A stretch of DNA of 64,000 bases from a virus: the IMG/VR virus record IMGVR_UViG_3300025168_000036; one strand, 5' to 3'. Shown here in pieces: positions 20,240-39,992 of the stretch. The notes beneath the pieces were generated by a model. That model ran no database searches. It was not told the DNA's origin and saw only the letters and a program-made list of their open reading frames with translations. Both the position numbers and the translations under genes were made by a program. Positions within the stretch are counted from its first letter, which is position 1. Each line of letters starts with the position of its first letter.

Positions 20240-21877
20240 TTAAATAGTGTTTAATCCAGATACATTAATCTTACCGTAGAATTCTGGTCTTACAACTTTC
20301 TTAGCATACCTAGTCATTACACCTTTTCTTGGAGTAAAGTTAGTTGGATCGTATACTAGTGGAGTCATAATTAATGGAATATAAGGAGCATAAACTGCAC
20401 CAGTTTCCAAGAATTGAGTACCACGGAATCCCATAATAATCTCATTTGATTGCATGTAAGGGTTTTTGTAAACTGTAAATCTGTTAGCTAAGCTACCGAT
20501 TTTAGTTACGCCCATTGCAAATGATTGTTGAGCACCATCTGTATCAACACCGAATCCAGAAATAGATTCTAACACAGTAGAAACCTCAGGTCCACATACT
20601 AAGAAGTTAGCACCACCACGCATTGTTTTTGCATGAATTTTGTTACTTACTTTTTGTACTTTTGTACCTAATGTTGCAAACCATGAAGTTTGTTGATAAG
20701 CATATTGTGAACCAACAGCAGAAAATGCAGTTCCAGCAGCATTTAATGCCTGTCCGTCTGCATGCCATGAATCAGTTGTGTTTGCATTTGCAGATAACAT
20801 ACCTAAGATTTCTAAATCTATTTCCATAGAAATATATTCAGATAACATAGATGTTAATTCAGCCTCAGCATCAATTGAGTGATAAGCATTTAAGTCTTGA
20901 GCAAATTCTGGAGTCCAGATTACTTTTAACTTTCTTGTCTTAGCTACAATTGCCTCAGATCTTAATTCAACATTTACTTCAGGAATATTCAAGTCTGTTG
21001 CAGTTCCAGCAGCATAAGATGTAGGATCTTTATCCTCAAAATCACCTCTTGACTGGTCATTAGCATTCTTGATTACAAATGAAGTCTTGATTTGACCTAA
21101 TCCAAAAGTATCAGCCCATGTTGGTAGTTCAGCAGCAGTTTCACCGATGAAAGTTACAACACCTGCAGCAGTAGCAGTAGTAAACTGTGGATATACTTTA
21201 AAGTCAGATGCAGAAACTTGGAAAGCTTGTGCAGCCTGTTCATCAAGATTAGTGTTTTCAGTTGTAATTACAACCTTCTTTAATCTCTTAGCAGTAACTA
21301 AAGTTTCTAAACTAGAATCAAAGTTAACATCAGCTAAAGAAGCAGTAGATGCTGCAGTTAAAGCGTCAGCTACACCTGTAGATGCAGATCTGTTAGTTGA
21401 ATATCCGAACTTTCCAGAACCATAAAGGCCTCCAGAAGGATCAACATTTTTGGTATCTGTAGTACCCATTATTTTATCACCAGTAGCTACTGTGTGAGTG
21501 TTAGCGGCAGTTCCGCCTACGCCTGAATCAGACCCATATTTGAAGTCTAGGAAAAATACTAGACCTGATGGTAGATTCATTGGTTGTACGCTTACAAAAT
21601 CTTTTGCAGCAATTTCACCGAAAATTCTTCTTACTAGTGGAAGTGCAACTCCTGACCATTCTTCTTTACTACCACCTGTACCGGTAGCATTAGCTTCTTG
21701 GATCAATTGTCTTGCTTGATTTTCTAAAAGAATAGCAGTATTATGTTTTTCATACTCTGCATCGATTCCTTCTAAAAGACCAGTTTTTTCCCACTTATTT
21801 ACATAAGCTTTAGTTTCAGCAATTTGTTGCCTATAAGTATTTTGAGCGTCGTTAAGTAAATTACTTACGTTTGACAT
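20240..21877 (-). CDS. gp23: Major capsid protein (T4 gp23-like)
   Basis: LPLVRR, VQPMNLPSGLVF, AKTRKLK, AQDLNAYHSIDAEAEL, YAPYIPL, PRKGVMTRY. Confidence 0.97.
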   Translation of the reverse strand: MSNVSNLLNDAQNTYRQQIAETKAYVNKWEKTGLLEGIDAEYEKHNTAILLENQARQLIQEANATGTGGSKEEWSGVALPLVRRIFGEIAAKDFVSVQPMNLPSGLVFFLDFKYGSDSGVGGTAANTHTVATGDKIMGTTDTKNVDPSGGLYGSGKFGYSTNRSASTGVADALTAASTASLADVNFDSSLETLVTAKRLKKVVITTENTNLDEQAAQAFQVSASDFKVYPQFTTATAAGVVTFIGETAAELPTWADTFGLGQIKTSFVIKNANDQSRGDFEDKDPTSYAAGTATDLNIPEVNVELRSEAIVAKTRKLKVIWTPEFAQDLNAYHSIDAEAELTSMLSEYISMEIDLEILGMLSANANTTDSWHADGQALNAAGTAFSAVGSQYAYQQTSWFATLGTKVQKVSNKIHAKTMRGGANFLVCGPEVSTVLESISGFGVDTDGAQQSFAMGVTKIGSLANRFTVYKNPYMQSNEIIMGFRGTQFLETGAVYAPYIPLIMTPLVYDPTNFTPRKGVMTRYAKKVVRPEFYGKINVSGLNTI

Positions 21878-21894: not shown

Positions 21895-22854
21895 TTATAG
21901 TAAACCTGCCAACTTCTTCATTCTAGATGAAAAGTTGTTAGATTCAACAATTACGTTTTTATTTGGTTTAGTCGAATTAACGGCTTTTGAAGCAAAACCT
22001 TCAGTTACTGATCTCTTCTTAGTTGGTTTGTATCCAGTTAAAGATTCTGCTAAAGTAGTGTATACTAATTTAACTTCTCTTACTGAACCTGCCCTATCGA
22101 AAGTTTCAATAATTTTCATTTTTTGTGATTCATTTAGACCGTTACTTCTAAATAGTTTGTTTGAGAATAAAAGTTTTGCATTCAACAAATTAACTTCATT
22201 GATCTTATCTTTTAGGAACTTAATAGTTTTGTAAGCTTCTTTAAGATCTTCATCTTTTTCAGTTTCATTTGTAGGCTCATCTTCGTCCTCATCTTCTTCT
22301 TGAAGTGCTTTAATTACCTCGTCTAAATCTATCTCTGTATCATCAGATGGTTCATCATCTTCAGTTTCGTCCATTGGTTTTTCATCAGAATCTTCAGTTT
22401 CAGTCACAGGTTCTTCATCATCACTGTGGTCTTCATCTTCAGTTTCCATTTCTTCACCATCGTCTTCTAATTCTTTAATGATTGATTCAAGTTCTAAGTC
22501 GTCTTCATCTTCAGTTTCATACATGTCATCATCTTCAGTTTCATGTATTTCTTCATCAGTGTCTTCACCACCTTCTGATTCATCTTCACCTACTTCGTTG
22601 TATGCTTCTTCAGTTTCATCAGCCTGACCTAAGTCGGTTGAGTCATCTGCGTCCATTTCAACAGTAGCTTCTGGAGTATCAGCTAGTTCTTCTTCATCAT
22701 CAAAATCTTCAGATTCTTCAGCGATCTTTTGAGATAACATAGATTGTAGTCTAGGGGTAAAAGCCTCTTCTAAAGCTAGTTTAGCATTCGCAATTGCAGT
22801 TTCTCTAACTGCTTTCGCATCAGCTATAGCTTCTTTTAACAAGTTTTTTGACAT
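21895..22854 (-). CDS. Prohead core / scaffold protein (T4 gp22-like)
   Basis: Helical ends, very acidic centre with repeated xxETE; directly upstream of capsid gene; GAGGAG SD. Confidence 0.85.
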   Translation of the reverse strand: MSKNLLKEAIADAKAVRETAIANAKLALEEAFTPRLQSMLSQKIAEESEDFDDEEELADTPEATVEMDADDSTDLGQADETEEAYNEVGEDESEGGEDTDEEIHETEDDDMYETEDEDDLELESIIKELEDDGEEMETEDEDHSDDEEPVTETEDSDEKPMDETEDDEPSDDTEIDLDEVIKALQEEDEDEDEPTNETEKDEDLKEAYKTIKFLKDKINEVNLLNAKLLFSNKLFRSNGLNESQKMKIIETFDRAGSVREVKLVYTTLAESLTGYKPTKKRSVTEGFASKAVNSTKPNKNVIVESNNFSSRMKKLAGLL

Positions 22855-22979: not shown

Positions 22980-22989
22980 TATAAATATA
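22980..22989 (-). promoter_or_regulatory. Class I-like promoter of the scaffold/capsid operon
   Basis: TATATTTATA about 125 nt upstream of ATG 22854. Confidence 0.55.
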
Positions 22990-23549: not shown

Positions 23550-23894
23550 TTAAACAGCCTTACCATCTCTAATTACAGTCCATATATGGTTCTTATCATG
23601 CCTCTTTTGTCTTGCAGTCTCTCTCTTTTGCATGGCTTTGGCATAGTCCATCTTTTTAACTCTTTTTGCAGAATTACCTTCAAAGTATCTCCTTTCCTTA
23701 TACTCATCTAGCTTCCCTGAGTCCTTTATTTGTCTCTTAAATATTTTAAGGGCCTTTTCTAGGTCTCCTGGTGTTGAACCTGGAACCTTAACTCCTCCTG
23801 GTACTCCTGGTATAATAAAGTCTGAACGCTTCCTATAATTTTTAATTGGCCTTCCAGACCTATCTCTTGGTGTATGCTTTCTTTTATCTGACAT
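23550..23894 (-). CDS. rpsU: Phage-encoded ribosomal protein bS21 with N- and C-terminal extensions
   Basis: Core VKV...DLEKALKIFKRQIKDSGKLDEYKERRYFEGNSAKR matches the bS21 pattern; located among head genes as in known bS21 phages. Confidence 0.85.
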   Translation of the reverse strand: MSDKRKHTPRDRSGRPIKNYRKRSDFIIPGVPGGVKVPGSTPGDLEKALKIFKRQIKDSGKLDEYKERRYFEGNSAKRVKKMDYAKAMQKRETARQKRHDKNHIWTVIRDGKAV

Positions 23895-23926: not shown

Positions 23927-23958
23927 AATATAAACAATTTCTGCTTAATAAAAAAATT
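23927..23958 (-). promoter_or_regulatory. Class II promoter of bS21
   Basis: AATTT(23958-23954)-N21-TATATT(23932-23927). Confidence 0.7.
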
Positions 23959-24560
23959 TATTTAATATTTTTTTTCATCCAAGAGTTTACGTATTGCATT
24001 AGCTCTTTCTGGGCAGGTTTAATGTCACCTTTCTCTGTCATAGGACCATTTTTCCAGTCTAACCAACCATCTTTAATTAACATTAAGCCTTCATCAAGAT
24101 CTCTCATGATTTCAATGTATTCTTCTGTAATTGTAGTCTTCTGTGTGTTCCATTCAAGAATTTTATTTTCCTGCATTTGCTTTAATAAGTTAGCCTCATC
24201 ACCTTTACGCCATGTGTTTCCTAACTTACCACCACCACCAATTCTTAATTGGCCATACTTAGCATAAATAGTATATTTTCTTCCATCAACATTAATAATT
24301 GCAGAATCAGAATACTTTTCTTTCATTGAACCTAATACATCTCTAACCTTATTCTTTTTAAGCCACTTCATAGCTATGTCATGGCCTTTTTTATCAAAGG
24401 TATAATTTAATGATGTTCCAACCTGGTCGCCTTTATCAAGCTTAACAGCTTCATCCTTTCTTTTAGGATTCAATACTGGATTCCATCTCATCTTTTTTAA
24501 TTTTGAAGAAGGTAGCTCACCTAAGTATGCATGTTCTTTTAATATATCTTTAAGTTTCAT
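23958..24560 (-). CDS. Putative internal head protein (starts MKLKDILKE)
   Basis: 200 aa; AGGAG SD; several x-x-E boundaries. Confidence 0.75.
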   Translation of the reverse strand: MKLKDILKEHAYLGELPSSKLKKMRWNPVLNPKRKDEAVKLDKGDQVGTSLNYTFDKKGHDIAMKWLKKNKVRDVLGSMKEKYSDSAIINVDGRKYTIYAKYGQLRIGGGGKLGNTWRKGDEANLLKQMQENKILEWNTQKTTITEEYIEIMRDLDEGLMLIKDGWLDWKNGPMTEKGDIKPAQKELMQYVNSWMKKNIK

Positions 24561-24562
24561 TA

Positions 24563-25729
24563 TTAAGCTCCTATTCTTGAGTATGTTAGCATATCATTAA
24601 TTGCTTTAAGTGCTTTCTTTTTTGCTGAATCAAATTCTTTTCCATATCTTCCTGATCCACCAGCCTTTTTAGCATTGGATACCATTTTCATTATATTGTT
24701 AATTTCCTTTGTCTCCTTTGAAGTTTTCATCTTAGGAGCAGCTTCTTTGATATGCTTCTTAGCTACAGCTTGGAAGTTTCTAAGGTTTGCTCCATTAAGT
24801 CTATCTGCAAAGCCTCTAGAATGTAGTGCTTTTACTAGATCTGTAAAACTGCCCTTGGTTAGTTTTTTAGCATCTTTTTGTTTTTTCAGAAATTGTTCTA
24901 TGTCCCAAGATAATACTGCAGGAATTGTTTTAAGACCTTTTTCTGCTGATGGAGCAGCTTCCTTAATGTGAGTTCTTTTCCAACCATCATATCTTACTTT
25001 TCCAAAGTTGTTTCTTCCAGTTGCAATACCTCTAAACCCTCCAACAGATTCATTAACAGACCCATCTTCCTCATCATCAATAGCATTTGCAATTGCAGCT
25101 CTTTTCTTAGCTAAATACTTATCTGATTCATCTTCATCACCATCATTATCTATATCTCCGTCTTCTTTTCCGACTGAGTCTAAAGCCTCTGATATTTCGT
25201 AGTATTTACCAAGCTTGTGGCCAATGTCTTCAAACACAGATTCCAATCTTTGCTGTAATGTATTCATTTCATTTGCAGTTTTTGTTAGCTGATCAACTGA
25301 ACCACCAATCCCTTTTACATCATTCTTTACAGTAACTGAATCAAACCAACCATCTGTCTCTTGTAATGCTAATTGGCCAGCACTTGAAGCCATAAGTTTT
25401 ATTGACTCAACCATCTCTTTTATCTCGTCTGTTCTGTATATCTTTGATGCAAACTCATTAAAGTTTTTTACTGCCTCAAGAACTTCTCTTTTTTGCCTTG
25501 GAGTAAGCTTTTGCTGTTCACTTTCCATAAGCGTTGAAAGTTTTATTCCCATTGTATTTTCTCCTATTTCAGTTTCTATTGTTTTTAGGTCTATATTTGG
25601 CTCTTCCTCATCTTTTACTGAGGGTTTAGCCTTCTTATTATAATTATCAAGCTCATCATCAAGAGTTTTAATCTGCTCAGGTGGCTTAGGTATCATATCG
25701 TTATCTATAAGTTCTGATAGTCTAATCAT
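24563..25729 (-). CDS. Putative modular prohead core / internal protein
   Basis: Start at 25729 overlaps the protease stop (ATGA); second SD-led in-frame ATG at 25552; DGDIDNDGDEDESDKYL motif; duplicated HIKEAAP. Confidence 0.75.
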   Translation of the reverse strand: MIRLSELIDNDMIPKPPEQIKTLDDELDNYNKKAKPSVKDEEEPNIDLKTIETEIGENTMGIKLSTLMESEQQKLTPRQKREVLEAVKNFNEFASKIYRTDEIKEMVESIKLMASSAGQLALQETDGWFDSVTVKNDVKGIGGSVDQLTKTANEMNTLQQRLESVFEDIGHKLGKYYEISEALDSVGKEDGDIDNDGDEDESDKYLAKKRAAIANAIDDEEDGSVNESVGGFRGIATGRNNFGKVRYDGWKRTHIKEAAPSAEKGLKTIPAVLSWDIEQFLKKQKDAKKLTKGSFTDLVKALHSRGFADRLNGANLRNFQAVAKKHIKEAAPKMKTSKETKEINNIMKMVSNAKKAGGSGRYGKEFDSAKKKALKAINDMLTYSRIGA

Positions 25730-26391
25730 TTTCTTTTTCTCGGCAATGAACACTTACAAGTTAGTTCGCATAACATTTCTGATATTATGTTTTCTACTTT
25801 CTCATATTTGTTTGCTTTTTTAGCTACTGGAGAATATGACTCATTTACACCTGGTATTTTACTTGTTGGGTGCATAAATGCTCCGTGAGTTGATGGATTA
25901 GAAACAAAGTCCCAACATACCAATTCAAAGTCATCTTGTACAATTAAAGTTTCCTCTCCTGTATCTTCACTTATTTCATTATTTACAGAACCTAAGCCTC
26001 TAGATGATATACCTAATTTAATATCGCACTTAAGTAGCTCTTTTAATATATTTCCAGATGGTGTACTTAGCACCTCAACCTTACCCATTAAATCATCACC
26101 TTCCCACCATATCTTACTAATATTATGTGACACATTTTGAAGGTTTACTACTGAAGATTCTGGGTGATCTAATTCACCTAGAGCTCTTCTCTCTTTAATT
26201 TGAGAAGCATTATATTTATTTGCCTCCCTCATTAGTACCTCCTTAGGGTAAATTCTTCCATTTTGATTTTTTGCTCCAGATCTTTGTAGCACACCTTGTA
26301 CTATAATCTTTCCATTATTCTTTTGTTCAGACTCAGCTATTTGCTGTCTTGATATCTGGAATGGTATTGTGTCTATTAATATTTGTTTCAT
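25726..26391 (-). CDS. gp21: Prohead protease (T4 gp21-like)
   Basis: KNQNGRIYP, ALGELDHP, VSH, LGISSRGLGS, WDFVSNPSTHGA; ATG at 26391 overlaps upstream stop. Confidence 0.95.
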   Translation of the reverse strand: MKQILIDTIPFQISRQQIAESEQKNNGKIIVQGVLQRSGAKNQNGRIYPKEVLMREANKYNASQIKERRALGELDHPESSVVNLQNVSHNISKIWWEGDDLMGKVEVLSTPSGNILKELLKCDIKLGISSRGLGSVNNEISEDTGEETLIVQDDFELVCWDFVSNPSTHGAFMHPTSKIPGVNESYSPVAKKANKYEKVENIISEMLCELTCKCSLPRKRK

Positions 26392-26516
26392 GCTTTTGTC
26401 CACGATTGTCTTTTTCTGTATAAGTCAAAAAATACTTTAGCAATCTCTTGCCTAATTATATCTCTTACTTGTTGTTCAGTAAGCTCTTCTTTAATTATTT
26501 TTTTTGACCTTTTCAT
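26388..26516 (-). CDS. 42-aa protein absent from the ORF track (MKRSKKIIKEELTEQQVRDIIRQEIAKVFFDLYRKRQSWTKA)
   Basis: Exactly fills the gap; its TGA overlaps the protease ATG. Confidence 0.8.
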   Translation of the reverse strand: MKRSKKIIKEELTEQQVRDIIRQEIAKVFFDLYRKRQSWTKA

Positions 26517-26517
26517 A

Positions 26518-26976
26518 TTAAAATTTTCTTAGCTTTTCACCTATTCTCATCATTCTTTCAGATATCTTATAAAGACCTTTTCTTGTTGACTTCCAATACT
26601 GCCTATTATCAATACCTTCCTCTGTTTTAAGCTTAATATTTTGATTAATAATTCTTTCAATTTTAATAAGCTTACTGTGCACCTCTTTTATTGCACTATT
26701 AACTTTATTCTTAGATGTTCTAGACTCATCCTTTTTATAAGCGCTGTATGAAATTTCGTTCATTGCCTTTTGCATCTTCATAAATGTCGATTCCTTAACT
26801 TTCTTGTAACCTAATACCTCAGCGTTTTTATTCTCATCTTCCTTCTTTTTCTTACTAAATGCATTTGGAGTCTTATATGGGCCCGCTGCAGAAGAAGTGT
26901 TGTGCTCATCCACATCTTCCTTCTTATAGCTTTCCCAGCTTTCTAGAAGCTCATCTAACTTTTTATTTAGTGACAT
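26518..26976 (-). CDS. Head-module hypothetical protein
   Basis: 152 aa; YKTPNAF motif; overlaps upstream gene. Confidence 0.8.
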   Translation of the reverse strand: MSLNKKLDELLESWESYKKEDVDEHNTSSAAGPYKTPNAFSKKKKEDENKNAEVLGYKKVKESTFMKMQKAMNEISYSAYKKDESRTSKNKVNSAIKEVHSKLIKIERIINQNIKLKTEEGIDNRQYWKSTRKGLYKISERMMRIGEKLRKF

Positions 26977-27817
26977 TTTTTAGCTCCTTAATAAGTGAAT
27001 GTGATCTCATACATGAAAGTATATGTGTTTCATTAATAGACTTTAAGTCTTTTAGCTTAATTAGTTGACTTTTTACTTCATTAAGCTTTATCTTTACAAT
27101 TTTATCATTAACCTTATTACTTAGTAGTGATATTGCCTTAGATATACTTTGTATTTCATCACTTACAACTTCTTTAAGTGAATTTGTATTTGATATATTT
27201 TCTATATATGCCCTAAGAAGTCTTTTCTGGCTTATACCTAGCTTTGCACCATACTTATCATTAAACTTTTCTAATAATATTTTATATGATAATATTCTTA
27301 GGTCTTTATCGTGCTTGGTAAGCTCATTTTGAACCTCATCAACCCTCTTCTTGTTTGGCTTTGATTCTGTAATGTTTTCTATAATAAAGTATCTAGAAGA
27401 CACTGTTTTTGCAGGATTTAGCCCATTTCCTTCAAGCATTCTCCATATCGATGCATTCATCTTATAAGTTGGCACCTTCGTTCTAAAAAAGTCTTCTATT
27501 ATATAACACCTTTTAATCTCCTTAATAAGATTGTATTTTTGCTTATTTAGTAAAGACTTATTTATCTTTTTATACTCAGAGATAACAGTATCAATAAGCC
27601 TTCCAGCCTTTTCACTGTTTGAAAACTTTGTCTTTTGTAGAGTTTGATATAATTCAAGCTCCCTGTTTAGTGATGTTCCTCTTCTAAAGAACTCTTTTAC
27701 TAGTGATACTGCTGGTGAATTCTCATTACCTAGCATCATATCATTAGTTATTTGTCTCACCAATAACTCAAACAGTATGCCTGTATTTTTGTATTTTGAA
27801 TGTCTGTCTCTGGCCAT
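26963..27817 (-). CDS. Conserved head-module protein
   Basis: 284 aa; HSKYKNTGILFELLVRQIT; AGGAG SD; between portal and protease. Confidence 0.85.
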   Translation of the reverse strand: MARDRHSKYKNTGILFELLVRQITNDMMLGNENSPAVSLVKEFFRRGTSLNRELELYQTLQKTKFSNSEKAGRLIDTVISEYKKINKSLLNKQKYNLIKEIKRCYIIEDFFRTKVPTYKMNASIWRMLEGNGLNPAKTVSSRYFIIENITESKPNKKRVDEVQNELTKHDKDLRILSYKILLEKFNDKYGAKLGISQKRLLRAYIENISNTNSLKEVVSDEIQSISKAISLLSNKVNDKIVKIKLNEVKSQLIKLKDLKSINETHILSCMRSHSLIKELKNVTK

Positions 27818-27849
27818 TAATCTCTCCTAAGTTATATATACTTATATGT

Positions 27850-27859
27850 TATAAATATC
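27850..27859 (-). promoter_or_regulatory. Class I promoter
   Basis: GATATTTATA, intergenic. Confidence 0.7.
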
Positions 27860-27867
27860 ATCTTATT

Positions 27868-29718
27868 TTATAAATTATCATCTATAAGGTTATTTTCGTT
27901 TAATAGGCCACTTTCGCCTTCTTGCTTATCATTAAATAGTGATCTTACTATTTTTTGATTATTTTCTCTAAAGTTATGTCTAATAGATCTATCTCTATTT
28001 TTATGATCTGATTTTCTCTTCTTTTTGCCTAATGGGTCTCTACCTCTTGCAGACTTATCTGTTCCTGGTTTTGCCCCATCCTTTGGCCTACCTTGACCTG
28101 GCTTATTCTCTGTCATTTCATCATCTGAAAAGAAATTAGTTACATCTGGTGCATCTGGTTCAAAACCACCGTCTTCTCCTTCGGGAGGCGTACCACCTTG
28201 CTGTAGTGCCCAATCAGTTGAAACAGATATCTTAGATACTTTAGGGTTATTTCCATCTTCAAGCTCATTGTGTAAAAATACCCTTTTTCTATCATCTTCA
28301 ACTTCCTTTCTGTTTCTATTCATCTCCTCTTCACTCATATTAAATATATTTTCATATATCCATTTCTCGCCTAACAGCTTTCCAGTTTGTATATCTGATG
28401 CTAATGTCACTTTACTAGACCATAGCTCTACTTGTTCTTGTTCATATATCTTAGAAGGATTAGTTAAGTTTAGTGAAAAGTTAACTAAGTCTTCTCCATC
28501 CATACCTTGTGAATGCAAATGCACTATTGCTATCTTAGTTAGCTCAGATGTTACTATCTTCTGTATTCTTTCTATTGTTCTTGCAAACCTTACATCCTCT
28601 GCAGCTAATGTTGCTTTCCCAGATGTTGACTCATCATACCCTAAAAATGCTTTTGGTATCTTTAGTGCAGCAAACATTCTGTTTCTTAGGTACTCAATAT
28701 CTTCAATGCCTCCAAACTCCATACCGGAAAGAGAGTCTATTTCTGTCCCACTTTGACCTCCTCTAACAGGTAAATAAAAGTCTTCCATCATATTTTGTAA
28801 ATTAAACTTAAGGTTATAATTACCAGTATCTTGGTCTATGAATGGAGTCTTTTTCATTGATGTCATAACTCTTTGCATGTATTGGTCTACCTCATTCGGT
28901 GGAATATTTCCAATATCAACCTTAAAAACTCTTTTCTCTGGAGCCCTCATAATTCTATGAATCATCATTGCATCTTCCATAAGAGTTAATTGCTTCCAGT
29001 TTTTTCTAGCACCTTCAAGCATAGACTTACCATAAGGTAAAAAGTTTGCATCACTTAGCATTCTAAGGTGAGCTATTTCATAATTTTCATATTTTACTGT
29101 ATTTGAATTTGATGCGCCGTAATTACCTGCACCTCCTAGTGATGGGTCGTGATGGAATAATACAGATTCAGGCTTAGAAGGGTCGAATCCTTCTTCTCTT
29201 AGCATCTCATAAGGTGTAATTGGAATTACATTAGTAACTCCATATTTTTCTGTTATATCTAGTTTAAGATAGAAGTCTCCATATTTAACTAAGTTTCTTA
29301 CCCATGGCCATAAATTAAATTCTATATTTAATATGTCATAGAATAAGTTATGTAATATCTTCTGAGTATCATCATTGGAACTCTTTATATTTAGTATATC
29401 ACCATACTCATTCTTCATTGTTGACTCATCAGCATAAATATCTAATGCAGAGGCAATAATAGAATCTTCATCCATCATTTCGTAGTCCGTAAATAGCTGT
29501 AACCTGTGTGTATGATAGTTTTGCTGAAAGTTATATCCTGTATTTCTAGATGAGGTATATAATCTATTAAATCTATCAACCAGCCTATTAGTTTCAAGGT
29601 TTGATGATTGAACTCTGTTTATATCTACTACTTTTAGCTTCTTTTCACCTGTTCTTCTGATTATACTACCAGTAGAAAATAGTGTTTGTAGCCTTCCAAA
29701 TAATGTTTTATCTGCCAT
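27868..29718 (-). CDS. gp20: Portal protein (T4 gp20-like)
   Basis: QLTLMEDAMMIHRIMRAPEKRVFKVDIGN, EDFYLPVRG, GTEIDSLSG, ALKIP. Confidence 0.95.
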   Translation of the reverse strand: MADKTLFGRLQTLFSTGSIIRRTGEKKLKVVDINRVQSSNLETNRLVDRFNRLYTSSRNTGYNFQQNYHTHRLQLFTDYEMMDEDSIIASALDIYADESTMKNEYGDILNIKSSNDDTQKILHNLFYDILNIEFNLWPWVRNLVKYGDFYLKLDITEKYGVTNVIPITPYEMLREEGFDPSKPESVLFHHDPSLGGAGNYGASNSNTVKYENYEIAHLRMLSDANFLPYGKSMLEGARKNWKQLTLMEDAMMIHRIMRAPEKRVFKVDIGNIPPNEVDQYMQRVMTSMKKTPFIDQDTGNYNLKFNLQNMMEDFYLPVRGGQSGTEIDSLSGMEFGGIEDIEYLRNRMFAALKIPKAFLGYDESTSGKATLAAEDVRFARTIERIQKIVTSELTKIAIVHLHSQGMDGEDLVNFSLNLTNPSKIYEQEQVELWSSKVTLASDIQTGKLLGEKWIYENIFNMSEEEMNRNRKEVEDDRKRVFLHNELEDGNNPKVSKISVSTDWALQQGGTPPEGEDGGFEPDAPDVTNFFSDDEMTENKPGQGRPKDGAKPGTDKSARGRDPLGKKKRKSDHKNRDRSIRHNFRENNQKIVRSLFNDKQEGESGLLNENNLIDDNL

Positions 29719-29727
29719 AATTTATTC

Positions 29728-31311
29728 CTATTTTATTAACCAAGTTAAGTCTTCGTCTGGGCCTTTATTTCCCATCTTCATCTTCCATGGGTCACTTGTT
29801 AAGTGGCTTGAGTTACTAAATCCTCCTGCACCAGTCTTGCCCATTAATCTTAGCGCATTCTTATTCATTGCCAATCCTTCGTTTCTCAGTTTTAGAGCTG
29901 AGTCTCTTACAAACAGTCCAATTGCGAAGGCCATTACCAAGTCATCATTATATCCACTTTGAGCTTCTGGCCTATTATTTTTCCAAATAAATACAGATAG
30001 CTCATCTAAGAGTCTTCTTGATCTTACTATAATGTCCTTTTCTCTAAAATAAATATCAAGCTTAGACACTAAAAGTGGTCTAGTCCTCGAAGAAGTTGTA
30101 AATCCTGGAACCATCTGAGACTTATCTTTTAAGTCGTATCCTTTTGTTAAATGTGTTGCAGAGTCAGTAACTCCTTCATGTTTATATGTATAATATAAAT
30201 TTTGGTAGTCTCTATCTATTGCCTGCTGTATTGCTGCCCACCCAACATTTGCGTTTTCTATAACTAGCAATGCATTATTCCATTCGGTAGCTACTGTAAC
30301 TAACATATTCCCAAAATCTTTTGTGCTTGGCTGACCTTTATATTCTGCAACTTGCTTTAAGCCTTGTATGTCTAATACATGAAATGTTGAATAGTCACTT
30401 CCATCTCCTCTAGATACATCAGCAACTACTACATAATCTTTTGAAAAGTCTGGGTATTCCCATATCCAATAATTGCCATCAACCCCTCTTCTTTCAGTAG
30501 GCTCTTCTGCATAGTTTTCTTTATACCATTCTAGTATTTTAGGTTCGACTACAGATGCACCAGAGCTAATAAAGTCACAGTCACATTCTTGCGCTGCCAT
30601 CTTAGGTCCTAGCAATCCGTCTTGTTTATCTCTCCAATCTTGTTCTCTCTCTGGGTGCAATGACCAGTGGAGCCTAATTGTATTAAAGTCGTTTTCGCCG
30701 TCTTCTGCCTTTACCCATGTTTTATGAAAGAAATTACCAACACCATTTGGTGTAGAAAGTATTATTGCCTTACCACCAGTTGCAAGTGTCTGTTGAGATG
30801 AAGCCCATATATCATCTATCCTATCAACAAATGCAGCCTCATCAATAATTAATAGCGAAAGTGCCTCTGATCTACCAGCATCTCCGCCAGATGATATTGC
30901 CTTAATTTGTGAGCCATTTGCAAACCTTAAACTTAGCTTATTATCTTCTATTGACTTATTCTTTAACCATGATGGTAAATACTGATGCATTGTTCTTACC
31001 TTCGTTACAAGGTTTTTTGCTACATCTTGCTTAGTTGCAATTACCAGACAGTTAAAGTCATCTTGAAAGATCATATGCCATAATGATATACCAGCTGACA
31101 GTGTTGATATTCCTAGCTGCCTAGACTTTAATATAATATTATAGTCATTTGTTGCAAACTCATCTATACACTTCTCTTGGAATGGGAAAAGATTAAATAG
31201 TATCTTTCCTTTTGTTGGGTGCTGTATATAACAATACTTGCGCATAAAGTGCACCGGATCAGTAGCACACTTTTGATATTCTTTAGCTATTAATTGTTTG
31301 ATATTCGACAT
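29728..31311 (-). CDS. terL: Terminase large subunit (T4 gp17-like)
   Basis: KSRQLGIST (Walker A), LIIDEAAF (Walker B), LSTPNG, nuclease ADVSRG...DYS and DDLVMA. Confidence 0.95.
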   Translation of the reverse strand: MSNIKQLIAKEYQKCATDPVHFMRKYCYIQHPTKGKILFNLFPFQEKCIDEFATNDYNIILKSRQLGISTLSAGISLWHMIFQDDFNCLVIATKQDVAKNLVTKVRTMHQYLPSWLKNKSIEDNKLSLRFANGSQIKAISSGGDAGRSEALSLLIIDEAAFVDRIDDIWASSQQTLATGGKAIILSTPNGVGNFFHKTWVKAEDGENDFNTIRLHWSLHPEREQDWRDKQDGLLGPKMAAQECDCDFISSGASVVEPKILEWYKENYAEEPTERRGVDGNYWIWEYPDFSKDYVVVADVSRGDGSDYSTFHVLDIQGLKQVAEYKGQPSTKDFGNMLVTVATEWNNALLVIENANVGWAAIQQAIDRDYQNLYYTYKHEGVTDSATHLTKGYDLKDKSQMVPGFTTSSRTRPLLVSKLDIYFREKDIIVRSRRLLDELSVFIWKNNRPEAQSGYNDDLVMAFAIGLFVRDSALKLRNEGLAMNKNALRLMGKTGAGGFSNSSHLTSDPWKMKMGNKGPDEDLTWLIK

Positions 31312-31327
31312 AAAATTACCTTAAGTT

Positions 31328-31359
31328 AATATAATAAAATTTATTGAAAAATAAAAATT
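31328..31359 (-). promoter_or_regulatory. Class II promoter of terminase
   Basis: AATTT(31359-31355)-N21-TATATT(31333-31328). Confidence 0.65.
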
Positions 31360-31365
31360 ATAGTA

Positions 31366-31764
31366 TTACTTTTTAGCTCTTTTTTCAAGTGATCTACCAC
31401 CAAAATAAGCACCAATAACTGTTATAAGTACCAATTGTAATAAGTCTGTCCACTTTTCTTCTACTACGAACTTAATAGAACCTGCATCAATAAATATCAT
31501 TAATACAGTACATACAACTAAAAATATTAACACTAATGGTCTTACATTTTTTGATAACCATGAATCAGAATTCATATCTGCAGACCAACGATCTGTAATG
31601 TTTTGCTCCATCTTTGCTTCATGGTTGGCAATTAATTCTTTCATCTTTCTTTTTGCTTCTAGCTTCTCTTCCTTAGATGTTGTTAGGTTATCTAGCACTC
31701 CACCTACACCTTTAACTAACTCATTAGCTCCTGAGCTAAATATTTTGCCTAAAATTCCTGACAT
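31366..31764 (-). CDS. Holin (3TM / GTA-type)
   Basis: RWSADMNSDSWLSKNVRP, two TM helices, AYFGGRSLEK. Confidence 0.8.
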   Translation of the reverse strand: MSGILGKIFSSGANELVKGVGGVLDNLTTSKEEKLEAKRKMKELIANHEAKMEQNITDRWSADMNSDSWLSKNVRPLVLIFLVVCTVLMIFIDAGSIKFVVEEKWTDLLQLVLITVIGAYFGGRSLEKRAKK

Positions 31765-31776
31765 AACTTCTCCTTT

Positions 31777-32337
31777 TTAGTATTCAAATGGTGGTGTGCC
31801 ATAGTCTTTTTGTTGAATACCATACCATGTGCTACCATTTAGGTAGTACCACCATCCATGCTTATTGTCTTCTATAATCTTAAACTTACCTTTTGGCAGA
31901 GGTGAATCTTTTTTAGAAGCTCTTGCAATGTATTTTAACACAGGGACTCCATCATCCCATGTCTTATCTGTTTTTCTAGCCATTACAGATTTTCTTTTAT
32001 CTGTATTTGTTGCTGTATACACTTTAAATGCTGGATCATCAGCTAAGAAAGACTTAAATACATCTTCATTAATTGACTCATCCATATCAATTGGCTCACC
32101 TTTAACAGCATCGTTAAATGTAGACTCAGCCTTTTGAACAATTTTATGCATCTTTATCAATGCATCCTTAAGCTTTTCTTTCTTCTTTGGGTCCTTTTCT
32201 GCTACAAAAGCTTTTCTAATCTTCTGTTGCTCCAACTGTACCTTTTGTAGTGCCTCAACTGCTTTAGTAAATCTCTTTGTCATAGAAATTTCTAGAACAT
32301 TCATTATTTCTTCTTTAATAATATCTTTTACATTCAT
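31777..32337 (-). CDS. Putative internal head protein (starts MNVKDIIKEEIMNVLE)
   Basis: 186 aa; two modules separated by MDESINE. Confidence 0.75.
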   Translation of the reverse strand: MNVKDIIKEEIMNVLEISMTKRFTKAVEALQKVQLEQQKIRKAFVAEKDPKKKEKLKDALIKMHKIVQKAESTFNDAVKGEPIDMDESINEDVFKSFLADDPAFKVYTATNTDKRKSVMARKTDKTWDDGVPVLKYIARASKKDSPLPKGKFKIIEDNKHGWWYYLNGSTWYGIQQKDYGTPPFEY

Positions 32338-32346
32338 AGCACTACC

Positions 32347-33345
32347 CTATATATTGTAGAATGACTTTTCCATATCTACTTTTTTAAGATCAGACTTAAA
32401 CCTTTTATACTTTGACTGAATGCCTCTAGCATATTCTAGCATTCTCTTTTTATAGTATTTCTCTTCAGACCACTCACCTTCTCCACCTTTTTCCATATCT
32501 TTCTTCTTGCCTATAGCCATAGCTTTTTCTTCTCTCATAAAGTATTCGAAGTCCCTCATGATATCATCATATGCACTAGATACTGTTCCTAGATAGCCAC
32601 CCCATCCTTGTCCAACCTTTCCTTTTTTAAGCATTGCAACTTTTACATCTAAAGACTTTTTATATTCCTGGTTGATCTTACTAACCATTTTTACAACCTG
32701 GTCTCCAGGTCCTGTATTAGCTAATCTGTCTCGTAATGCTTTTTCATATCTTGTTCTATTTTCTGCTGCAACCTTGCTTGCCGCTACTAGTGCAGTTGCA
32801 CCTTGTTTTGCAGCTGATCTATCTGCAGTCTTGCCTGATGTTGAGAAGTCTTTTGCAGCACCTTTATAATCTACATTCCACACTTCATCTGCTAGCTCAT
32901 TAAATCTTTTAAAGTTATTCATCTCCTTAGCATTAACCCCCATTTGTGAGTTACCACTTCTGTAGCCTGATCTCTTTGTAGTTGAGAAAGATTCTCTAGA
33001 TGTATATACTACCTTCTTTCCAATAGTAACGCCTATAAGATTAGGTCCATGTATAGTGTCATCCCAGGAATTTTTTGAGTATGGATTTTTTGCTGTCTTA
33101 TTAATAAAAAAGAAATTTATACCTTTACTAGTATCTGCGCCTTTCTTTGCAAAGTCATCAGTTACTTGGTCCCAAGCAATTCCGTGTGCATTATGTAGCA
33201 TCTGAAATACATCTTTATCTCTACCTCTTAACTTCTTACTTATTGTTGCAATATTCTTAGATGCAAACTTCTCTGTTAATAGGCCTTCTTTAATTAGCTC
33301 AACAAAGCTTTCTTTTATTAAACTTCTTAATTCTTTTTTATTCAT
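32347..33345 (-). CDS. Putative internal head protein (starts MNKKELRSLIKESF...LLTE)
   Basis: 332 aa; Lys-rich; class I promoter upstream. Confidence 0.75.
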   Translation of the reverse strand: MNKKELRSLIKESFVELIKEGLLTEKFASKNIATISKKLRGRDKDVFQMLHNAHGIAWDQVTDDFAKKGADTSKGINFFFINKTAKNPYSKNSWDDTIHGPNLIGVTIGKKVVYTSRESFSTTKRSGYRSGNSQMGVNAKEMNNFKRFNELADEVWNVDYKGAAKDFSTSGKTADRSAAKQGATALVAASKVAAENRTRYEKALRDRLANTGPGDQVVKMVSKINQEYKKSLDVKVAMLKKGKVGQGWGGYLGTVSSAYDDIMRDFEYFMREEKAMAIGKKKDMEKGGEGEWSEEKYYKKRMLEYARGIQSKYKRFKSDLKKVDMEKSFYNI

Positions 33346-33376
33346 CTCTATTTCCCTGTATGTTTTCTGTTATTAT

Positions 33377-33386
33377 AATAAATATC
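33377..33386 (-). promoter_or_regulatory. Class I promoter
   Basis: GATATTTATT, intergenic. Confidence 0.7.
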
Positions 33387-33389
33387 AGC

Positions 33390-33602
33390 TTAGTTCCAAA
33401 ATATTAGCTTACCTAGTATCCCTAACACAGCAATCCAAACAGACCATAATGCCCCATTTGCCTTCTTTCTAAAGTCTGTATTTCTATTAACTCTTGATAT
33501 TGTTCCATCATCTGGATCTAATAATCTTACTTTAATCTCTCTAATGTCTGCCTTAAGCTCTAATAGCTCGGCATGAAGTTGTTCGTTTGTTAGTCTCGCC
33601 AT
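33390..33602 (-). CDS. Small protein with coiled coil and C-terminal TM helix
   Basis: 70 aa; ALWSVWIAVLGILGKLIFW; GGAG SD. Confidence 0.75.
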   Translation of the reverse strand: MARLTNEQLHAELLELKADIREIKVRLLDPDDGTISRVNRNTDFRKKANGALWSVWIAVLGILGKLIFWN

Positions 33603-34162
33603 TTTTTAGCTCCGTCCTCTAATTCTTTTACTCGATTATTAAATATAGATTTTAACTCTTCTATGCCTTGACCTCCAGTCCACTTCTCGATACTTCCATC
33701 TTCAGTGACATATTTTTCACCTTCTCTTGTTGATAAAAATTCAACATACTCAGATTGTACATCAGCAATCCATGCATCAAAATTCTTTCCGTGTTCTCTT
33801 TTAAAGAACTCATCCCTTGTACCATCAATTATCATTCTGGTTTCCCACTTTACATGACAATGGAAGCAGTGCTTCATTAGGTTCCATGCACCTTTATCAA
33901 ATTTGTGCTTCATCCTAGTATTACACTTAGGGCAACTAATAGGTACTCGTAATACTTGCCTTGCTGCATCTAGCTTTGTAACATTTTGCTTTACACCATC
34001 CTGGATTGTCCATGTCTTTCCTCTTTCTGTCCAGACATCACCTTCTTGTTTTCTTAATCTTCTTGCTTTATAACCTGTTTGTATTTCTGTAGCTGAATTA
34101 TAGTTTCCTGTTGCCAGGTTTCTCATTCTACTTACTCTACTTTCTTTTATTGACTTTTTCAT
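33590..34162 (-). CDS. Hypothetical protein with zinc-binding motif
   Basis: GDVWTERGKTWTIQDG; CPKC...CFHC. Confidence 0.8.
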   Translation of the reverse strand: MKKSIKESRVSRMRNLATGNYNSATEIQTGYKARRLRKQEGDVWTERGKTWTIQDGVKQNVTKLDAARQVLRVPISCPKCNTRMKHKFDKGAWNLMKHCFHCHVKWETRMIIDGTRDEFFKREHGKNFDAWIADVQSEYVEFLSTREGEKYVTEDGSIEKWTGGQGIEELKSIFNNRVKELEDGAKKWRD

Positions 34163-34166
34163 ATAA

Positions 34167-34790
34167 CTATATTAAATCCTTTAATTTACCTAATATTAAA
34201 CCATCTGCCATTTCACCCTTCCCTTTTGGGTTCCACCAATCTTTTGGCTGGTTCTTTAGCCTTGCAGAGGTCTCTTTATTTCTTTGTGAGTATGATTGTA
34301 CTCCATCTTGTGCATTTGTTTTCATTCTTCTATGATAATTTTTTACTTTATCAAGATCATTTAGATTTGTTGGAGAATTCTGCTGTCTTCTATACTTACC
34401 GCTAGGTTCTGGAGTTCCTGCTTCTGGAGCATCCTCTGGTGAAAGTTGTCCTGCCCACGGCCAAGCCTCTTCATCTCCCGTTGATAGGCTTACATAATTT
34501 AAGCTTTCTGGGGGAATATGGTATGTATTATCACCATGACCTCTCCAAGTTCTTTGCTCTGGGCTTAGTGGTGGAGTATCATCTCTAAGCTCACCTGCAT
34601 GCTCCTCCTCACTGTCATATATTGAATCTGCAATAGGAAACTGAACTTGTGTCATCCCCTTACCTAAGCCAGATGGTGAGATGTGTCTCTCTCTTCCAGC
34701 CTTAACATATATACCATCAGGCCATGCATCACCACTCGGTAAGCCTACATCTGTAGGTGTATGTTCTAATATCTTTTTCAGCTTTATCAT
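34167..34790 (-). CDS. Putative internal head protein (starts MIKLKKILE), Pro/Gly-rich
   Basis: 207 aa; class I motif 4 nt upstream; ends KLKDLI, echoing the N-terminal tag. Confidence 0.7.
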   Translation of the reverse strand: MIKLKKILEHTPTDVGLPSGDAWPDGIYVKAGRERHISPSGLGKGMTQVQFPIADSIYDSEEEHAGELRDDTPPLSPEQRTWRGHGDNTYHIPPESLNYVSLSTGDEEAWPWAGQLSPEDAPEAGTPEPSGKYRRQQNSPTNLNDLDKVKNYHRRMKTNAQDGVQSYSQRNKETSARLKNQPKDWWNPKGKGEMADGLILGKLKDLI

Positions 34791-34794
34791 ATAA

Positions 34795-34804
34795 TATAAA
34801 TATC
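34795..34804 (-). promoter_or_regulatory. Class I promoter, probably leaderless transcript
   Basis: GATATTTATA 4 nt before ATG. Confidence 0.7.
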
Positions 34805-34826
34805 TTCTTTTAACTTAAAAGTGTTA

Positions 34827-37094
34827 TTAAAAGTATATCATTCCTGTAATTTGATTAATTGGTGCAAATGCTCCTGTAAGTTTATATGTGTTTCCTTTAT
34901 ATACAAATACTAAACCCTCTGATGGTACTATTGTCTTAAAGCCACCCATAGCAGCTACTTTATTAAGTTGGGCAGAAAGCTTATTCATATTTTTTATGTC
35001 TCCACCTTTCCTAACATGCTTAATTGCAGCTGCAACTTGCTTTCTCATATTTTGTACTGTTTTATCTGGATTTGCAGCAAGGAAGCCATCAACATTTTTA
35101 AGAACCTCAGCTCCTAACTCGAAAAATAGAGTTTCAAATGCAAACATATTCTTTTTTATTTGATCTGCATGCTTTAGCTTATCAAATTCAATTGACTTAG
35201 CTAAGATACTTTCATCTTCTATTGTCTTCTTATTTAATCTAAATGACTTATCAAAGAATGCCCATCTCTTAACTAGGCCCATCTTAATTCTATTTTCAAT
35301 ATTGCCTAACTTTTTATCTATAAAGTTTTCCCACCATGCTTGATGATATTCACCAAAAGTATTTGAATCTTTCATTCCGTATACTGACATTAACTTTGAG
35401 AGCTTTTTAATAAAGTAAGATTGTTTATCAGAGAAGTCTTGATGAGGTTTCATCTTTAGGACTTTAGGTCCTATTACTTTAAAGTTTTTTTGTACACTTT
35501 GGTTAGCTTGTGCAACCATACCGGCAAGAATTCTTGCTCCATCATTTACTGCACCAATTGCCTTACCATCTTTATACTGTAATACATTGTGGAATTGCAG
35601 GTACGGTGCATCATAGTTAATTACGTTTGCGGAAGCAGGGTATATGATTTCCATATTAACCCAGTTATTACCGTTATTAAATATTTTAGTTCTTTGCTTA
35701 TTATTTAGGCTTCCAATAGACTTAGACAAATCATTCATTGCATAGTTAAATGCTTTTTCAATATTTCCTCTATTCTTAAACTTTTTTGCTACAGCCTTAG
35801 AGTCCATACCGCCCTTTTTAACATCACCAGTATTTCTTGCAGCTCTTAGTCCATTATTCCAACTAATAAATAAATTTTGTCCGTCTGTCTTTTCTGTAGC
35901 TATTTGGTTTAGATCAAGCTTACCTTGTAGCGATACTCTTATTATTTCTTTAAAGTCACCAAATGTTAAACCTTTATCATCAAATGGGTGAGCCATGTGG
36001 CCGTATGCACCACCTTCTGTTAACAGACTTTCTGATAGCATGTCATTATTTTTCTTAGTCTTATCTTTATTCTTTTTACCTACTTCTGCACCTATCCAGT
36101 TAACAAACTCCCATCCAATCTGAGATGCTATTCTTATAATATGTTTTTTGTATTGAGTAAATGCAGGTTTTGGTTCTAGATCTTGGTATACATTTGTTCC
36201 AGATATCTTACCTTTAATTCCAGTTGACCAATATGAAACTGCACCAGTAGGGCCTTTAGGATATTGTGTATTGTGAAAGAAAAATTCATCTTTTCCAGAT
36301 ATATAATCTAACACTTTCATTCCTCTATTTATATCTTTTTCTAATGCACTTCCAAACCTTTTCCATGATTTTTGATTTCCCCACCATCCACCAGGACCAT
36401 CATCTACTTCTGTTGCACTATTTGCTGTAGAGAATGTTGATATTTCTTTTATTATTTTTGCAATGTTTTTGTCATAACAGAAGTTTTCCATAATCTCAGT
36501 TAAAGACTCTAACTTATTAACTATAAGGTTATAATTTTTTGTGTGGCCAAATATTCCCTTAAATAGCTTTACTTTTTCTTTTTTATCTATTGTTGTGTCA
36601 CCTAAAGCCTTTCTAATAGTTGTACCTGACATCTCACCATATCCACTGACCTTTAATGATACATGTGGTGCTACTATTATATATGCACCTTCTTTATATC
36701 CTACTTCAGCCTTACCTTTCCATTCTTGAAAAAATTTACCTTTTAGTCTACCAGCATCTTTTGCACCAAACATAAACACTGCAGCAGTAGTTTCTGGGTC
36801 ATACTTTTTTAATATTTCTGTAGCTTGGTAAGGGCTTTTTACTTGTACTACATTTTTAATTCCGTGAGAGTTTATTATCTTTTTCTTTTCTGCAAATGAG
36901 AATGGAGACTTTGGAAGGCTAACCTTACCACTAGTAGCCACATAAGCATCACTAAACTTAGACTTTAACCACTTATATGTTTGTGCATGGTGCTTACCCA
37001 TAGGCTGGAACCTACCAGGGTATATTGCAACTATATTTTTTATCTTTGAGTCCTCGGCAAGGATGTTTTCTACAAGCCATTTATCTAGTTTCAT
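34827..37094 (-). CDS. Multidomain protein: cytidylyltransferase-like nucleotidyltransferase plus ATP-dependent (RNA) ligase-like domain
   Basis: YPGRFQPMGKHH and MSGTTIR in the N-terminal part; TEKTDGQN, NMEII, EGLVF and YKL in the C-terminal part. Confidence 0.7.
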   Translation of the reverse strand: MKLDKWLVENILAEDSKIKNIVAIYPGRFQPMGKHHAQTYKWLKSKFSDAYVATSGKVSLPKSPFSFAEKKKIINSHGIKNVVQVKSPYQATEILKKYDPETTAAVFMFGAKDAGRLKGKFFQEWKGKAEVGYKEGAYIIVAPHVSLKVSGYGEMSGTTIRKALGDTTIDKKEKVKLFKGIFGHTKNYNLIVNKLESLTEIMENFCYDKNIAKIIKEISTFSTANSATEVDDGPGGWWGNQKSWKRFGSALEKDINRGMKVLDYISGKDEFFFHNTQYPKGPTGAVSYWSTGIKGKISGTNVYQDLEPKPAFTQYKKHIIRIASQIGWEFVNWIGAEVGKKNKDKTKKNNDMLSESLLTEGGAYGHMAHPFDDKGLTFGDFKEIIRVSLQGKLDLNQIATEKTDGQNLFISWNNGLRAARNTGDVKKGGMDSKAVAKKFKNRGNIEKAFNYAMNDLSKSIGSLNNKQRTKIFNNGNNWVNMEIIYPASANVINYDAPYLQFHNVLQYKDGKAIGAVNDGARILAGMVAQANQSVQKNFKVIGPKVLKMKPHQDFSDKQSYFIKKLSKLMSVYGMKDSNTFGEYHQAWWENFIDKKLGNIENRIKMGLVKRWAFFDKSFRLNKKTIEDESILAKSIEFDKLKHADQIKKNMFAFETLFFELGAEVLKNVDGFLAANPDKTVQNMRKQVAAAIKHVRKGGDIKNMNKLSAQLNKVAAMGGFKTIVPSEGLVFVYKGNTYKLTGAFAPINQITGMIYF

Positions 37095-37112: not shown

Positions 37113-37122
37113 TATAAATATC
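37113..37122 (-). promoter_or_regulatory. Class I promoter
   Basis: GATATTTATA in a 29-nt intergenic gap. Confidence 0.75.
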
Positions 37123-39416: not shown

Positions 39417-39992
39417 TTATTTTCTTTTTTGAAGAACTTTTATAATTCCGTCTATAACCTTTTCTTTTTTATTTACAGTATTTTTCTGTATGTATTCTGC
39501 AACTATTGTATTTAGCTTCCCCTTCTTTATGTTTAAGTTTTTTATATTTATGTCTTCTTTAATAAGAAGTCTCATAATATTTATAATGTGAGCTCTATCA
39601 ACACTAGTTACTTCCTTGCTTTCCTTGATGCCAGTTATTGAGATCTTAGGTTTGCCTACTTCTTTTATTACTTCCTTGCTTTGAGATTTAACCTCTACAG
39701 TTACTTTTTTACTTGCCTCAACAGAGAATTCTGATTTCCATGGGACAAAATATGTATCATCTGCAACTACTTCCAGCTTAATGTTACCAGATTCGCTTTC
39801 ACCTAAAAGGCCTTTTAACTTTTTTACTGGTATGCTACATTTTCCAGATTTTGATATTGTACCATTAAATACAAAGCTAATATCATTAGCTTCAACTATT
39901 AATCTTGCAAATGAATCCTTTATTGAAGCCCCTGAAAGCTTAATATCACATTCAAATAGCTCGTTCTTGTCTGTATATAATTTATATGCCAT
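39417..39992 (-). CDS. Hypothetical protein
   Basis: 191 aa; GGAG SD; LEVVADDTYFVPW. Confidence 0.8.
   Translation of the reverse strand: MAYKLYTDKNELFECDIKLSGASIKDSFARLIVEANDISFVFNGTISKSGKCSIPVKKLKGLLGESESGNIKLEVVADDTYFVPWKSEFSVEASKKVTVEVKSQSKEVIKEVGKPKISITGIKESKEVTSVDRAHIINIMRLLIKEDINIKNLNIKKGKLNTIVAEYIQKNTVNKKEKVIDGIIKVLQKRK

Follow-up and report, generated by a model that had tools for sequence, protein, structure and literature searches.

In bacteriophage T4 the prohead protease gp21 cuts its substrates after the glutamate of L/I-x-E, and the first 10 residues of internal protein IPIII are enough for packaging; within this capsid targeting sequence (CTS) targeting needs positions 4 and 7, processing positions 8 and 10 (PMC9026906, PMC3012670). 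Reviews have already suggested that T4-like phages use the CTS generally (PMC9026906), and gp24 is described with a propeptide of 10–20 residues (PMC5694885). In the giant phages phiKZ, 201phi2-1 and SPN3US propeptides of inner-head and ejection proteins are processed by a gp21-related protease; many head proteins carry N-terminal propeptides, with several cleavage sites each, enzymes are packaged and diverged paralogues keep conserved N-termini (PMC5694885, PMC9026906). The searchable literature yielded no report of a CTS in marine or cyanophage-type T4-likes. Here we describe a short peptide, below called the tag, that begins several otherwise unrelated proteins encoded around the T4-type head genes of IMG/VR virus record IMGVR_UViG_3300025168_000036. 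The analysed stretch of 64,000 nucleotides (nt), hereafter the window, covers the late region of an uncultured marine T4-like phage, with a GC content of about 34% and all its genes on the minus strand. By analogy in residue pattern we read the tag as the counterpart, in this lineage, of the T4 CTS, and with a probability of about 0.6 it is a T4-style targeting and processing tag, placed at N-termini and at joints between protein modules and read by the S77 protease.

For detection of the tag a nine-position position-specific scoring matrix (PSSM) was trained on 11 distinct N-termini of the protease-downstream family of related IMG/VR loci (MKLKDLLSEN, MKLKKILREN etc.). Any window sequence was kept out of the training set to avoid circularity, and the 54 open reading frames (ORFs) of the window were then scored. 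Four N-termini reached at least 6.8, the remaining scores being 2.8 or lower. The best profile match was MKLKDILKE of a protein of 200 amino acids (aa) starting at 24560 (score 17.1); the others were MKLDKWLVE of the 755-aa protein (37094; 10.5), MIKLKKILE of the 207-aa protein (34790; 8.0) and MNVKDIIKE of the 186-aa protein (32337; 6.8). The expected number of such N-termini is 0.09 under a null with N-terminal composition and 0.22 when columns are shuffled among N-termini; none of 5000 shuffles gave four. A fifth copy, MGIKLSTLME (25552), is internal to the 388-aa protein and aligned there with the N-terminal Met of the relatives' proteins. The consensus can be written as M-K-L-K-x-[IL]-[IL]-x-E, with hydrophobic residues at −6, −3 and −2 relative to the terminal Glu, and the bodies behind it are unrelated to each other (best E value 0.04). 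The genes concerned are as follows (in all sequences a slash stands after the Glu of interest):

23958..24560, minus strand: 200-aa protein, tag MKLKDILKE/H (PSSM 17.1)
24563..25729, minus strand: 388-aa multi-module protein (alignment with 17 homologues; AlphaFold2 model)
26518..26976, minus strand: 152-aa protein, start MSLNKKLDELLE/S, weak tag (PSSM −1.4)
31777..32337, minus strand: 186-aa protein, tag MNVKDIIKE/E (PSSM 6.8)
32347..33345, minus strand: 332-aa protein, longer leader MNKKELRSLIKE/S...LLTE/K, moderate tag (loose regular expression only, see below)
34167..34790, minus strand: 207-aa Pro/Gly/acid-rich protein, tag MIKLKKILE/H (PSSM 8.0)
34827..37094, minus strand: 755-aa protein, tag MKLDKWLVE/N ILAE/D (PSSM 10.5)

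A preliminary description of this DNA had noticed a similar amphipathic tag on otherwise unrelated ORFs around the head genes. All peptides quoted in it are present at their starts on the minus strand, and the similarity stands for 24560, 32337, 34790, 37094 and the internal copy at 25552. It is weak for MIRLSELI (25729), MSLNKKLDELLE (26976), MNKKELRSLIKE (33345) and the scaffold start MSKNLLKE, which fit only a looser pattern or family-specific helices. The N-terminus at 13342 has to be removed from the set: its PSSM score is −9.4 and its gene sits in the tail module.

Within protein families the codons for the tag Leu, Ile and Glu vary and positions 4, 5 and 8 change freely; hydrophobic residues are retained at 3, 6 and 7 and Glu at 9. 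When the start regions of the tagged genes were compared at the DNA level, no common cassette or upstream element was found. Since codons vary, residue classes are kept and upstream DNA is not shared, the constraint acts on the tag as a peptide. Its distribution was followed in a comparison set of 80 related IMG/VR loci. In the 46 loci with both protease and scaffold genes the loose tag occurs on 28 of the 93 distinct ORFs lying between them and on 26 of 333 elsewhere (odds ratio 5.1, P 1.6e-7), the sequences counted being distinct but not phylogenetically independent. The untagged ORFs of this interval include many genes for ribosomal protein S21, and the tag-bearing ORFs of the relatives fall into about 13 body families, one of them a P-loop protein. 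The scan of window and relatives that the preliminary description had proposed favours its claim of a shared N-terminal peptide. Thus, the tag exists, is non-random, conserved as a peptide, carried by unrelated bodies, concentrated in the head module and similar to the T4 propeptides. The last point was calibrated on genes taken from the T4 GenBank record, 97 ORFs being scored with the PSSM and 91 coding sequences searched with a loose regular expression (hydrophobic-x-x-hydrophobic-hydrophobic-x-E within 16 residues). The sole T4 match scoring at least 6.8 was gp24 (MAKINELLRE), which the record annotates as cleaved by gp21; the loose expression found ipII, ipIII and gp24. The T4 N-termini read MKTYQEFIAE/A (ipII and ipIII), MAKINELLRE/S (gp24), MLKEQLIAE/A (gp22) and MELITELFDE/D (Alt). 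Exchange of the Glu for Asp prevents processing in T4 and leaves targeting intact. Counted from the terminal Glu, the T4 CTS and the window tag share hydrophobic residues at −6, −3 and −2 and an acid at −4. The residue pattern thus agrees with the earlier comparison with T4 capsid targeting, and it is also that of the gp24 propeptide.

The protease that would read the tag, and the head genes next to it, are of T4 type:

20240..21877, minus strand: major capsid protein, Gp23 family (Pfam Gp23 PF07068, 3.3e-73; matches solved T4 gp23 structures)
21895..22854, minus strand: acidic scaffold protein, start MSKNLLKE/A, between the protease block and the major capsid protein
25726..26391, minus strand: prohead protease of T4 gp21 type, S77 (Pfam Peptidase_S77 PF03420, 5.6e-29)
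27868–29718, minus strand: T4-type portal
29728–31311, minus strand: large terminase

Residues 29–176 of the protease align to the T4 gp21 structure 5jbl, and the alignment takes in its DHP and SRGLGS motifs, which carry the catalytic His and Ser; this supports the comparison with gp21 made in the preliminary description. The predicted maturation site of the capsid protein is QLIQE/A after Glu61 (codon near 21695–21697); by likeness to the T4 site LTE/A in the equivalent region we infer that the protein is cut there. QL[IV]xE is kept in all 27 aligned clade members, followed by A/S and in a few rows by N or T, and a C-terminal site [VIM]NE/S of the protease itself is near-invariant across the clade. 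Conservation of these two sites indicates the likely specificity of the protease, and the hydrophobic-x-Glu pattern noticed earlier in capsid and protease is present in both. The scaffold N-terminus is conserved in relatives and is comparable to that of T4 gp22, and the scaffold protein holds 7 [LIVM]xE[AGS] sites at 2.1 expected (z-score 3.6). Judged by the protease, Microcystis phage Mel-JY01 and Flavobacterium phage immuto (vB_FspM_immuto) come closest among cultured phages, at about 53–56% identity; identity to cyanophage and classical T4-likes is 34–44%, about 34% for the classical ones. N-termini of interest were seen in both cultured relatives: MKKSQLRQIIKE, MRLLELLRE and MKKSQIVKAVQEVLEE in immuto, MISLKSLIKH and MGKLINILLSE in Mel-JY01. 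A homologue of ribosomal protein S21 (Pfam 6e-9; 23550–23894, minus strand) is encoded within the head module, in the interval from protease to scaffold, and keeps this spot in most related loci and in Mel-JY01.

The preliminary description had placed apparent module boundaries at hydrophobic-x-Glu sites, and the 388-aa protein is the clearest case. It is composed of an N-terminal extension (MIRLSELI), the internal tag MGIKLSTLME/S (nt 25523–25552), a helical core, ISE/A, an acidic DxDxDG-like motif, VNE/S, a 72-aa insert between HIKE/AAP repeats and a C-terminal module. ATG 25729 is likely its start, because it overlaps the stop codon of the protease gene as ATGA. Most homologues in relatives begin exactly at the position of the internal MGIKLSTLME/S. 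The additional 61-residue N-terminal part, found in the window and its three closest relatives, has a tag-like start of its own, which ends in Asp or Asn and not in Glu. The shortest homologues stop at, or a few residues from, the position of the window YYEISE/A (E181). Sites with the protease motif at module boundaries flank lineage-specific inserts: the 72-residue insert of the window protein has HIKE/AAP on both flanks, and a 95-residue insert in the homologue from locus L003 has SVNE on each side. In L035 the 388-aa homologue contains, fused into its interior, the leader of the 200-aa family (LKSLLRENHALGILPSSKLLKMKWNP). In the AlphaFold2 model (predicted local distance difference test score, pLDDT, 59) the helical core occupies residues 77–176, and E181, E227, E257 and E329 all lie in low-pLDDT stretches, which make up 28% of the chain. 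A tblastn search with the 388-aa protein against cultured phages found a match in Mel-JY01 only.

Some further features of this gene were registered. The internal Met (25552, minus strand) is preceded by GGAG 8 nt upstream, so that internal initiation, which occurs in T4 gene 21, could in addition yield a shorter protein with the tag at its start. The acidic motif GKEDGDIDNDGDEDESDKYLAKKR (25079–25190, minus strand; residues about 190–225) resembles a calcium site; its region has 73–84% DNA identity over about 70–100 nt to hypothetical proteins of many cyanophages, far higher than across the rest of the gene.

Modular construction is repeated in some of the other tagged proteins. The 200-aa protein, for which neither Pfam nor PHROGs gave a match, has in relatives conserved first 30 residues and a variable middle. 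In the 186-aa protein an N-terminal module (1–82) and a C-terminal one (88–186) meet at SINE/D; the former is attached to different bodies in relatives, and the latter forms there the end of a 473-aa tagged multi-module protein, after NVNE/D. Homologues of the 332-aa protein begin with MKESQLRALIESEI.. and, in those relatives whose gene order was inspected, are encoded between the protease and the scaffold; an ESM Atlas search with the 332-aa protein gave no result. The 207-aa protein is probably disordered. For the 200-, 186-, 332- and 207-aa bodies neither PHROGs nor Pfam suggested a function. The 152-aa gene stands between the portal-side genes and the protease, which is the position of T4 gp67/gp68; the relatives encode 75 homologues of its product, starting MSLNKKL.. 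or MKSFLKE.., and the product has an [LI]xE z-score of 2.3. As separate observations, the C-terminus of the 207-aa protein (34167–34190, minus strand) is also tag-like (...GLILGKLKDLI); in T4, processing affects both ends of Alt. In the relatives L009, L036 and L007 the short basic modules GLWANIHAKRKRG and MGxVHAxQKG turn up in different tagged proteins of the head module, in the manner of shuffled mini-domains.

In the 755-aa protein the tag is followed by an adenylyltransferase-like Rossmann domain, a disordered middle, the sequence LSE/SLLTE/GG and a ligase-like domain (KTDG). Its fold matches are weak: PDB sequence and Foldseek searches gave weak NadD/PPAT-like hits and one weak RNA-ligase match. 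In the AlphaFold2 model the tag forms a separate helix (residues 3–14) ahead of the first Rossmann strand (20–24). LLTE/GG is invariant even among distant untagged homologues, which makes this joint less convincing, since it may simply belong to the ligase-like domain. Among the boundaries proposed earlier, ISE/A, VNE/S, IKE/A (twice) and INE/D hold, and LTE/GG is doubtful. A stand-alone ligase-like ORF in L020 (MNEGLLLEGG...) was considered and rejected: its frame continues without a stop up to the locus end, and as a contig-end artefact it is not evidence for a split at LLTE/GG. In another ligase-like homologue (L030, 1677–2849) the sequence ...CYYANGILVHN stands directly before TDGQ of the conserved EKTDGQ motif, which suggests an intein inserted at ligase motif I.

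Tagged genes may also be expressed together with structural ones. A promoter-like TATTTATA lies 4 nt upstream of the 207-aa start (34795–34802) and again before the 755-aa gene (37113–37120), and a GATATTTATA-like motif precedes these two genes as well as the tail-tube, sheath, neck, scaffold and 284-aa genes. In gene orientation (G)ATATTTATA is found 2–125 nt 5' of structural gene starts, and 12 of its 16 copies in this orientation are intergenic, though the window has little intergenic DNA. Copies are located at:

13367–13374, 14533–14540, 15336–15343, 17223–17230, 20128–20135, 22980–22987
27850–27857, 34795–34802, 37113–37120, 40476–40483, 57148–57155

The motif is the reverse complement of T4's TATAAATA and is probably the late promoter of this lineage. 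After the 207- and 755-aa genes this gene string continues with those of the 332- and 186-aa proteins and leads into the terminase and portal genes. Late co-expression is plausible on these grounds.

Based on these data one can assume that the tag would dock its protein onto the scaffolding core during prohead assembly and that the gp21-type S77 protease would then cut after the Glu and remove it. The hydrophobic-x-Glu joints would let the 388-aa, the 186-aa and perhaps the 755-aa proteins be cut apart inside the head. Their pieces might be retained and injected, or degraded as are T4 gp22, gp67 and gp68. For the 388-, 152- and 200-aa proteins degradation in the manner of the T4 core proteins is at least as likely as delivery; the 755-aa protein, which is enzyme-like, and the variable proteins of 186 and 207 aa have more the look of cargo. 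It is possible, and we propose it only tentatively, that in marine T4-likes a portable nine-residue peptide combines a head-loading address with a cut-here joint, and that modules, an adenylyltransferase-ligase among them, are fused, split and swapped, released separately in the capsid and delivered with the DNA.

Several observations weigh against a capsid targeting and processing tag and have to be set beside those above. The loose expression matches 7 of the 54 window ORFs at 0.6–1.1 expected, but three of the seven lie outside the region, on a DNA_pol_A fragment, a SET-domain ORF and a 199-aa ORF. In T4 it also matches about 4 non-head proteins in 91 coding sequences, an over-call rate of roughly 5%, and the look-alike N-terminus of the polymerase fragment likewise means that loose motifs over-call. 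In a pairwise Smith-Waterman comparison of all N-terminal 30-mers the window N-termini were not more similar than under an N-terminus-versus-internal null. [LI]xE is above shuffles throughout the contiguous head block (z-scores 1.6–3.7), with 57 sites at 36 expected in the 11 tagged and head-core proteins pooled, but a primase-like protein is enriched too (z-score 3.8). Part of what the preliminary description had named as evidence against itself was thus found: look-alike N-termini and [LI]xE enrichment occur in replication proteins as well. The tag of the 755-aa protein is confined to a close subclade, and its distant homologues lack it and begin at strand 1. Both AlphaFold2 models, of the 388- and the 755-aa protein, are of low confidence (pLDDT about 58). 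For neither this phage nor its cultured relatives did the searchable literature yield proteomics of virions or results on cleavage or packaging; nothing was found on Mel-JY01, and no virion proteomics for immuto. The shared ancestry of the loci counted above belongs to the same side of the balance.

One alternative keeps the tag, the sites and the protease and dispenses with cargo and injection: the tagged proteins would be prohead-core or scaffolding accessories, functional analogues of T4 gp67, gp68 and gp22, incorporated in the core, chopped at hydrophobic-x-Glu and expelled. The 388-, 200- and 152-aa genes between portal and scaffold, as in T4 gp67 and gp68, agree with it, as do the 332-aa homologues between protease and scaffold, the long helical bundle or coiled region of the 388-aa core with its many internal [LIVM]xE sites, and [LI]xE enrichment spanning the whole head block. 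Such a role fits poorly with the adenylyltransferase and ligase-like domains of the 755-aa protein, with 207- and 186-aa bodies varying like T4 internal proteins and with tags on about 13 body families including a P-loop protein, so that as a full account it appears somewhat unlikely. A simpler explanation makes the tags ordinary amphipathic first helices, or a result of A/T-rich codon choice at gene starts that favours efficient translation, unconnected with the capsid, and their likeness to the T4 CTS a coincidence. The N-termini of the window are indeed rich in K, L and I, their pairwise similarity stays at chance level, and look-alikes occur on the polymerase fragment, on T4 DNA ligase (MILKILNE) and on other non-head T4 proteins. 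Nulls which preserve N-terminal and per-position composition nevertheless give P<1/5000, the residue class and not the codon is conserved, tags are enriched by position in the head module and recur internally at module joints, and the sole T4 profile match is a true gp21 substrate; coincidence is thus unlikely. Finally, the shared peptides and duplicated junction motifs could be recombination scars that aid in-frame shuffling of modules and have no biochemical role. Coding repeats of HIKEAAP or SVNE do flank the inserts, and modules do fuse and split between relatives, but neither tags nor upstream DNA are conserved at the nucleotide level between genes, and the junction motifs match the specificity deduced from the invariant capsid and protease sites. 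Shuffling and cleavage are, besides, compatible with each other, and scars as the entire explanation seem very unlikely. In view of these counter-points neither composition nor coincidence nor recombination scars by themselves account for the evidence as well as a T4-style targeting and processing tag does.

Several ORFs outside this set should be mentioned. MKVKDVIEE at the start of the ORF at 2766–3800 (minus strand) was considered as a sixth tag and rejected, being on the DNA_pol_A fragment with a PSSM score within chance; this 344-aa ORF matches only the C-terminal part of DNA_pol_A and looks like a split polymerase gene. The best internal profile match in the window, KKLKGLLGE/S (score 15.2), occupies residues 55–66 of a 191-aa ORF (39417–39992, minus strand) and may be another internal joint or chance. 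The SET-domain protein (Pfam 6e-8; 44798–45259, minus strand) is flanked by two very large virion-type genes.

Should the tag have the role that it has in T4, head-carried proteins would become predictable from sequence in abundant, mostly uncultured marine phages, and such proteins are candidates for the first to meet host defences. If the nine residues are both a portable address and a joint, sequence alone could reveal which proteins a phage packages or injects, and the junction copies suggest a simple route of cargo swapping, insertion of a module between two protease sites. The tagged proteins also offer concrete substrates for a T4-type protease outside enterobacterial models.

The class of mechanism is already known, from the T4 CTS and from the propeptides of giant phages. 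What is new is the lineage, how many carrier families there are, the copies at internal joints with fusion and fission, and the inserts with duplicated sites at their borders. In T4 (IPI/IPII/IPIII, Alt and the gp24 propeptide), as here, an N-terminal peptide of 9–10 residues with a terminal Glu is carried by unrelated proteins and is accompanied by an S77 protease and by a capsid protein of the Gp23 family in which a hydrophobic-x-Glu site precedes the mature domain. The window tag differs in being one residue shorter and Lys-rich, in belonging to a distant marine lineage with more carrier families and with internal copies at module joints, in having an 86-kDa two-enzyme protein among its carriers, and in that its function is predicted from sequence. 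The genes of T4 gp22, gp67 and gp68, whose products are cut by gp21 at several L/I-x-E sites, likewise lie between portal and capsid, and these core proteins and their window counterparts are both helical, acidic or charged, and have many hydrophobic-x-Glu sites. No sequence homology to gp67 or gp68 was detected, and the window proteins differ in their modular build and in their lineage-specific inserts, which have duplicated sites on both flanks. The propeptides of giant phages are mostly longer than 100 residues and follow the motif S/A-x-E, whereas the tags of the window are T4-sized and follow L/I/V-x-E.

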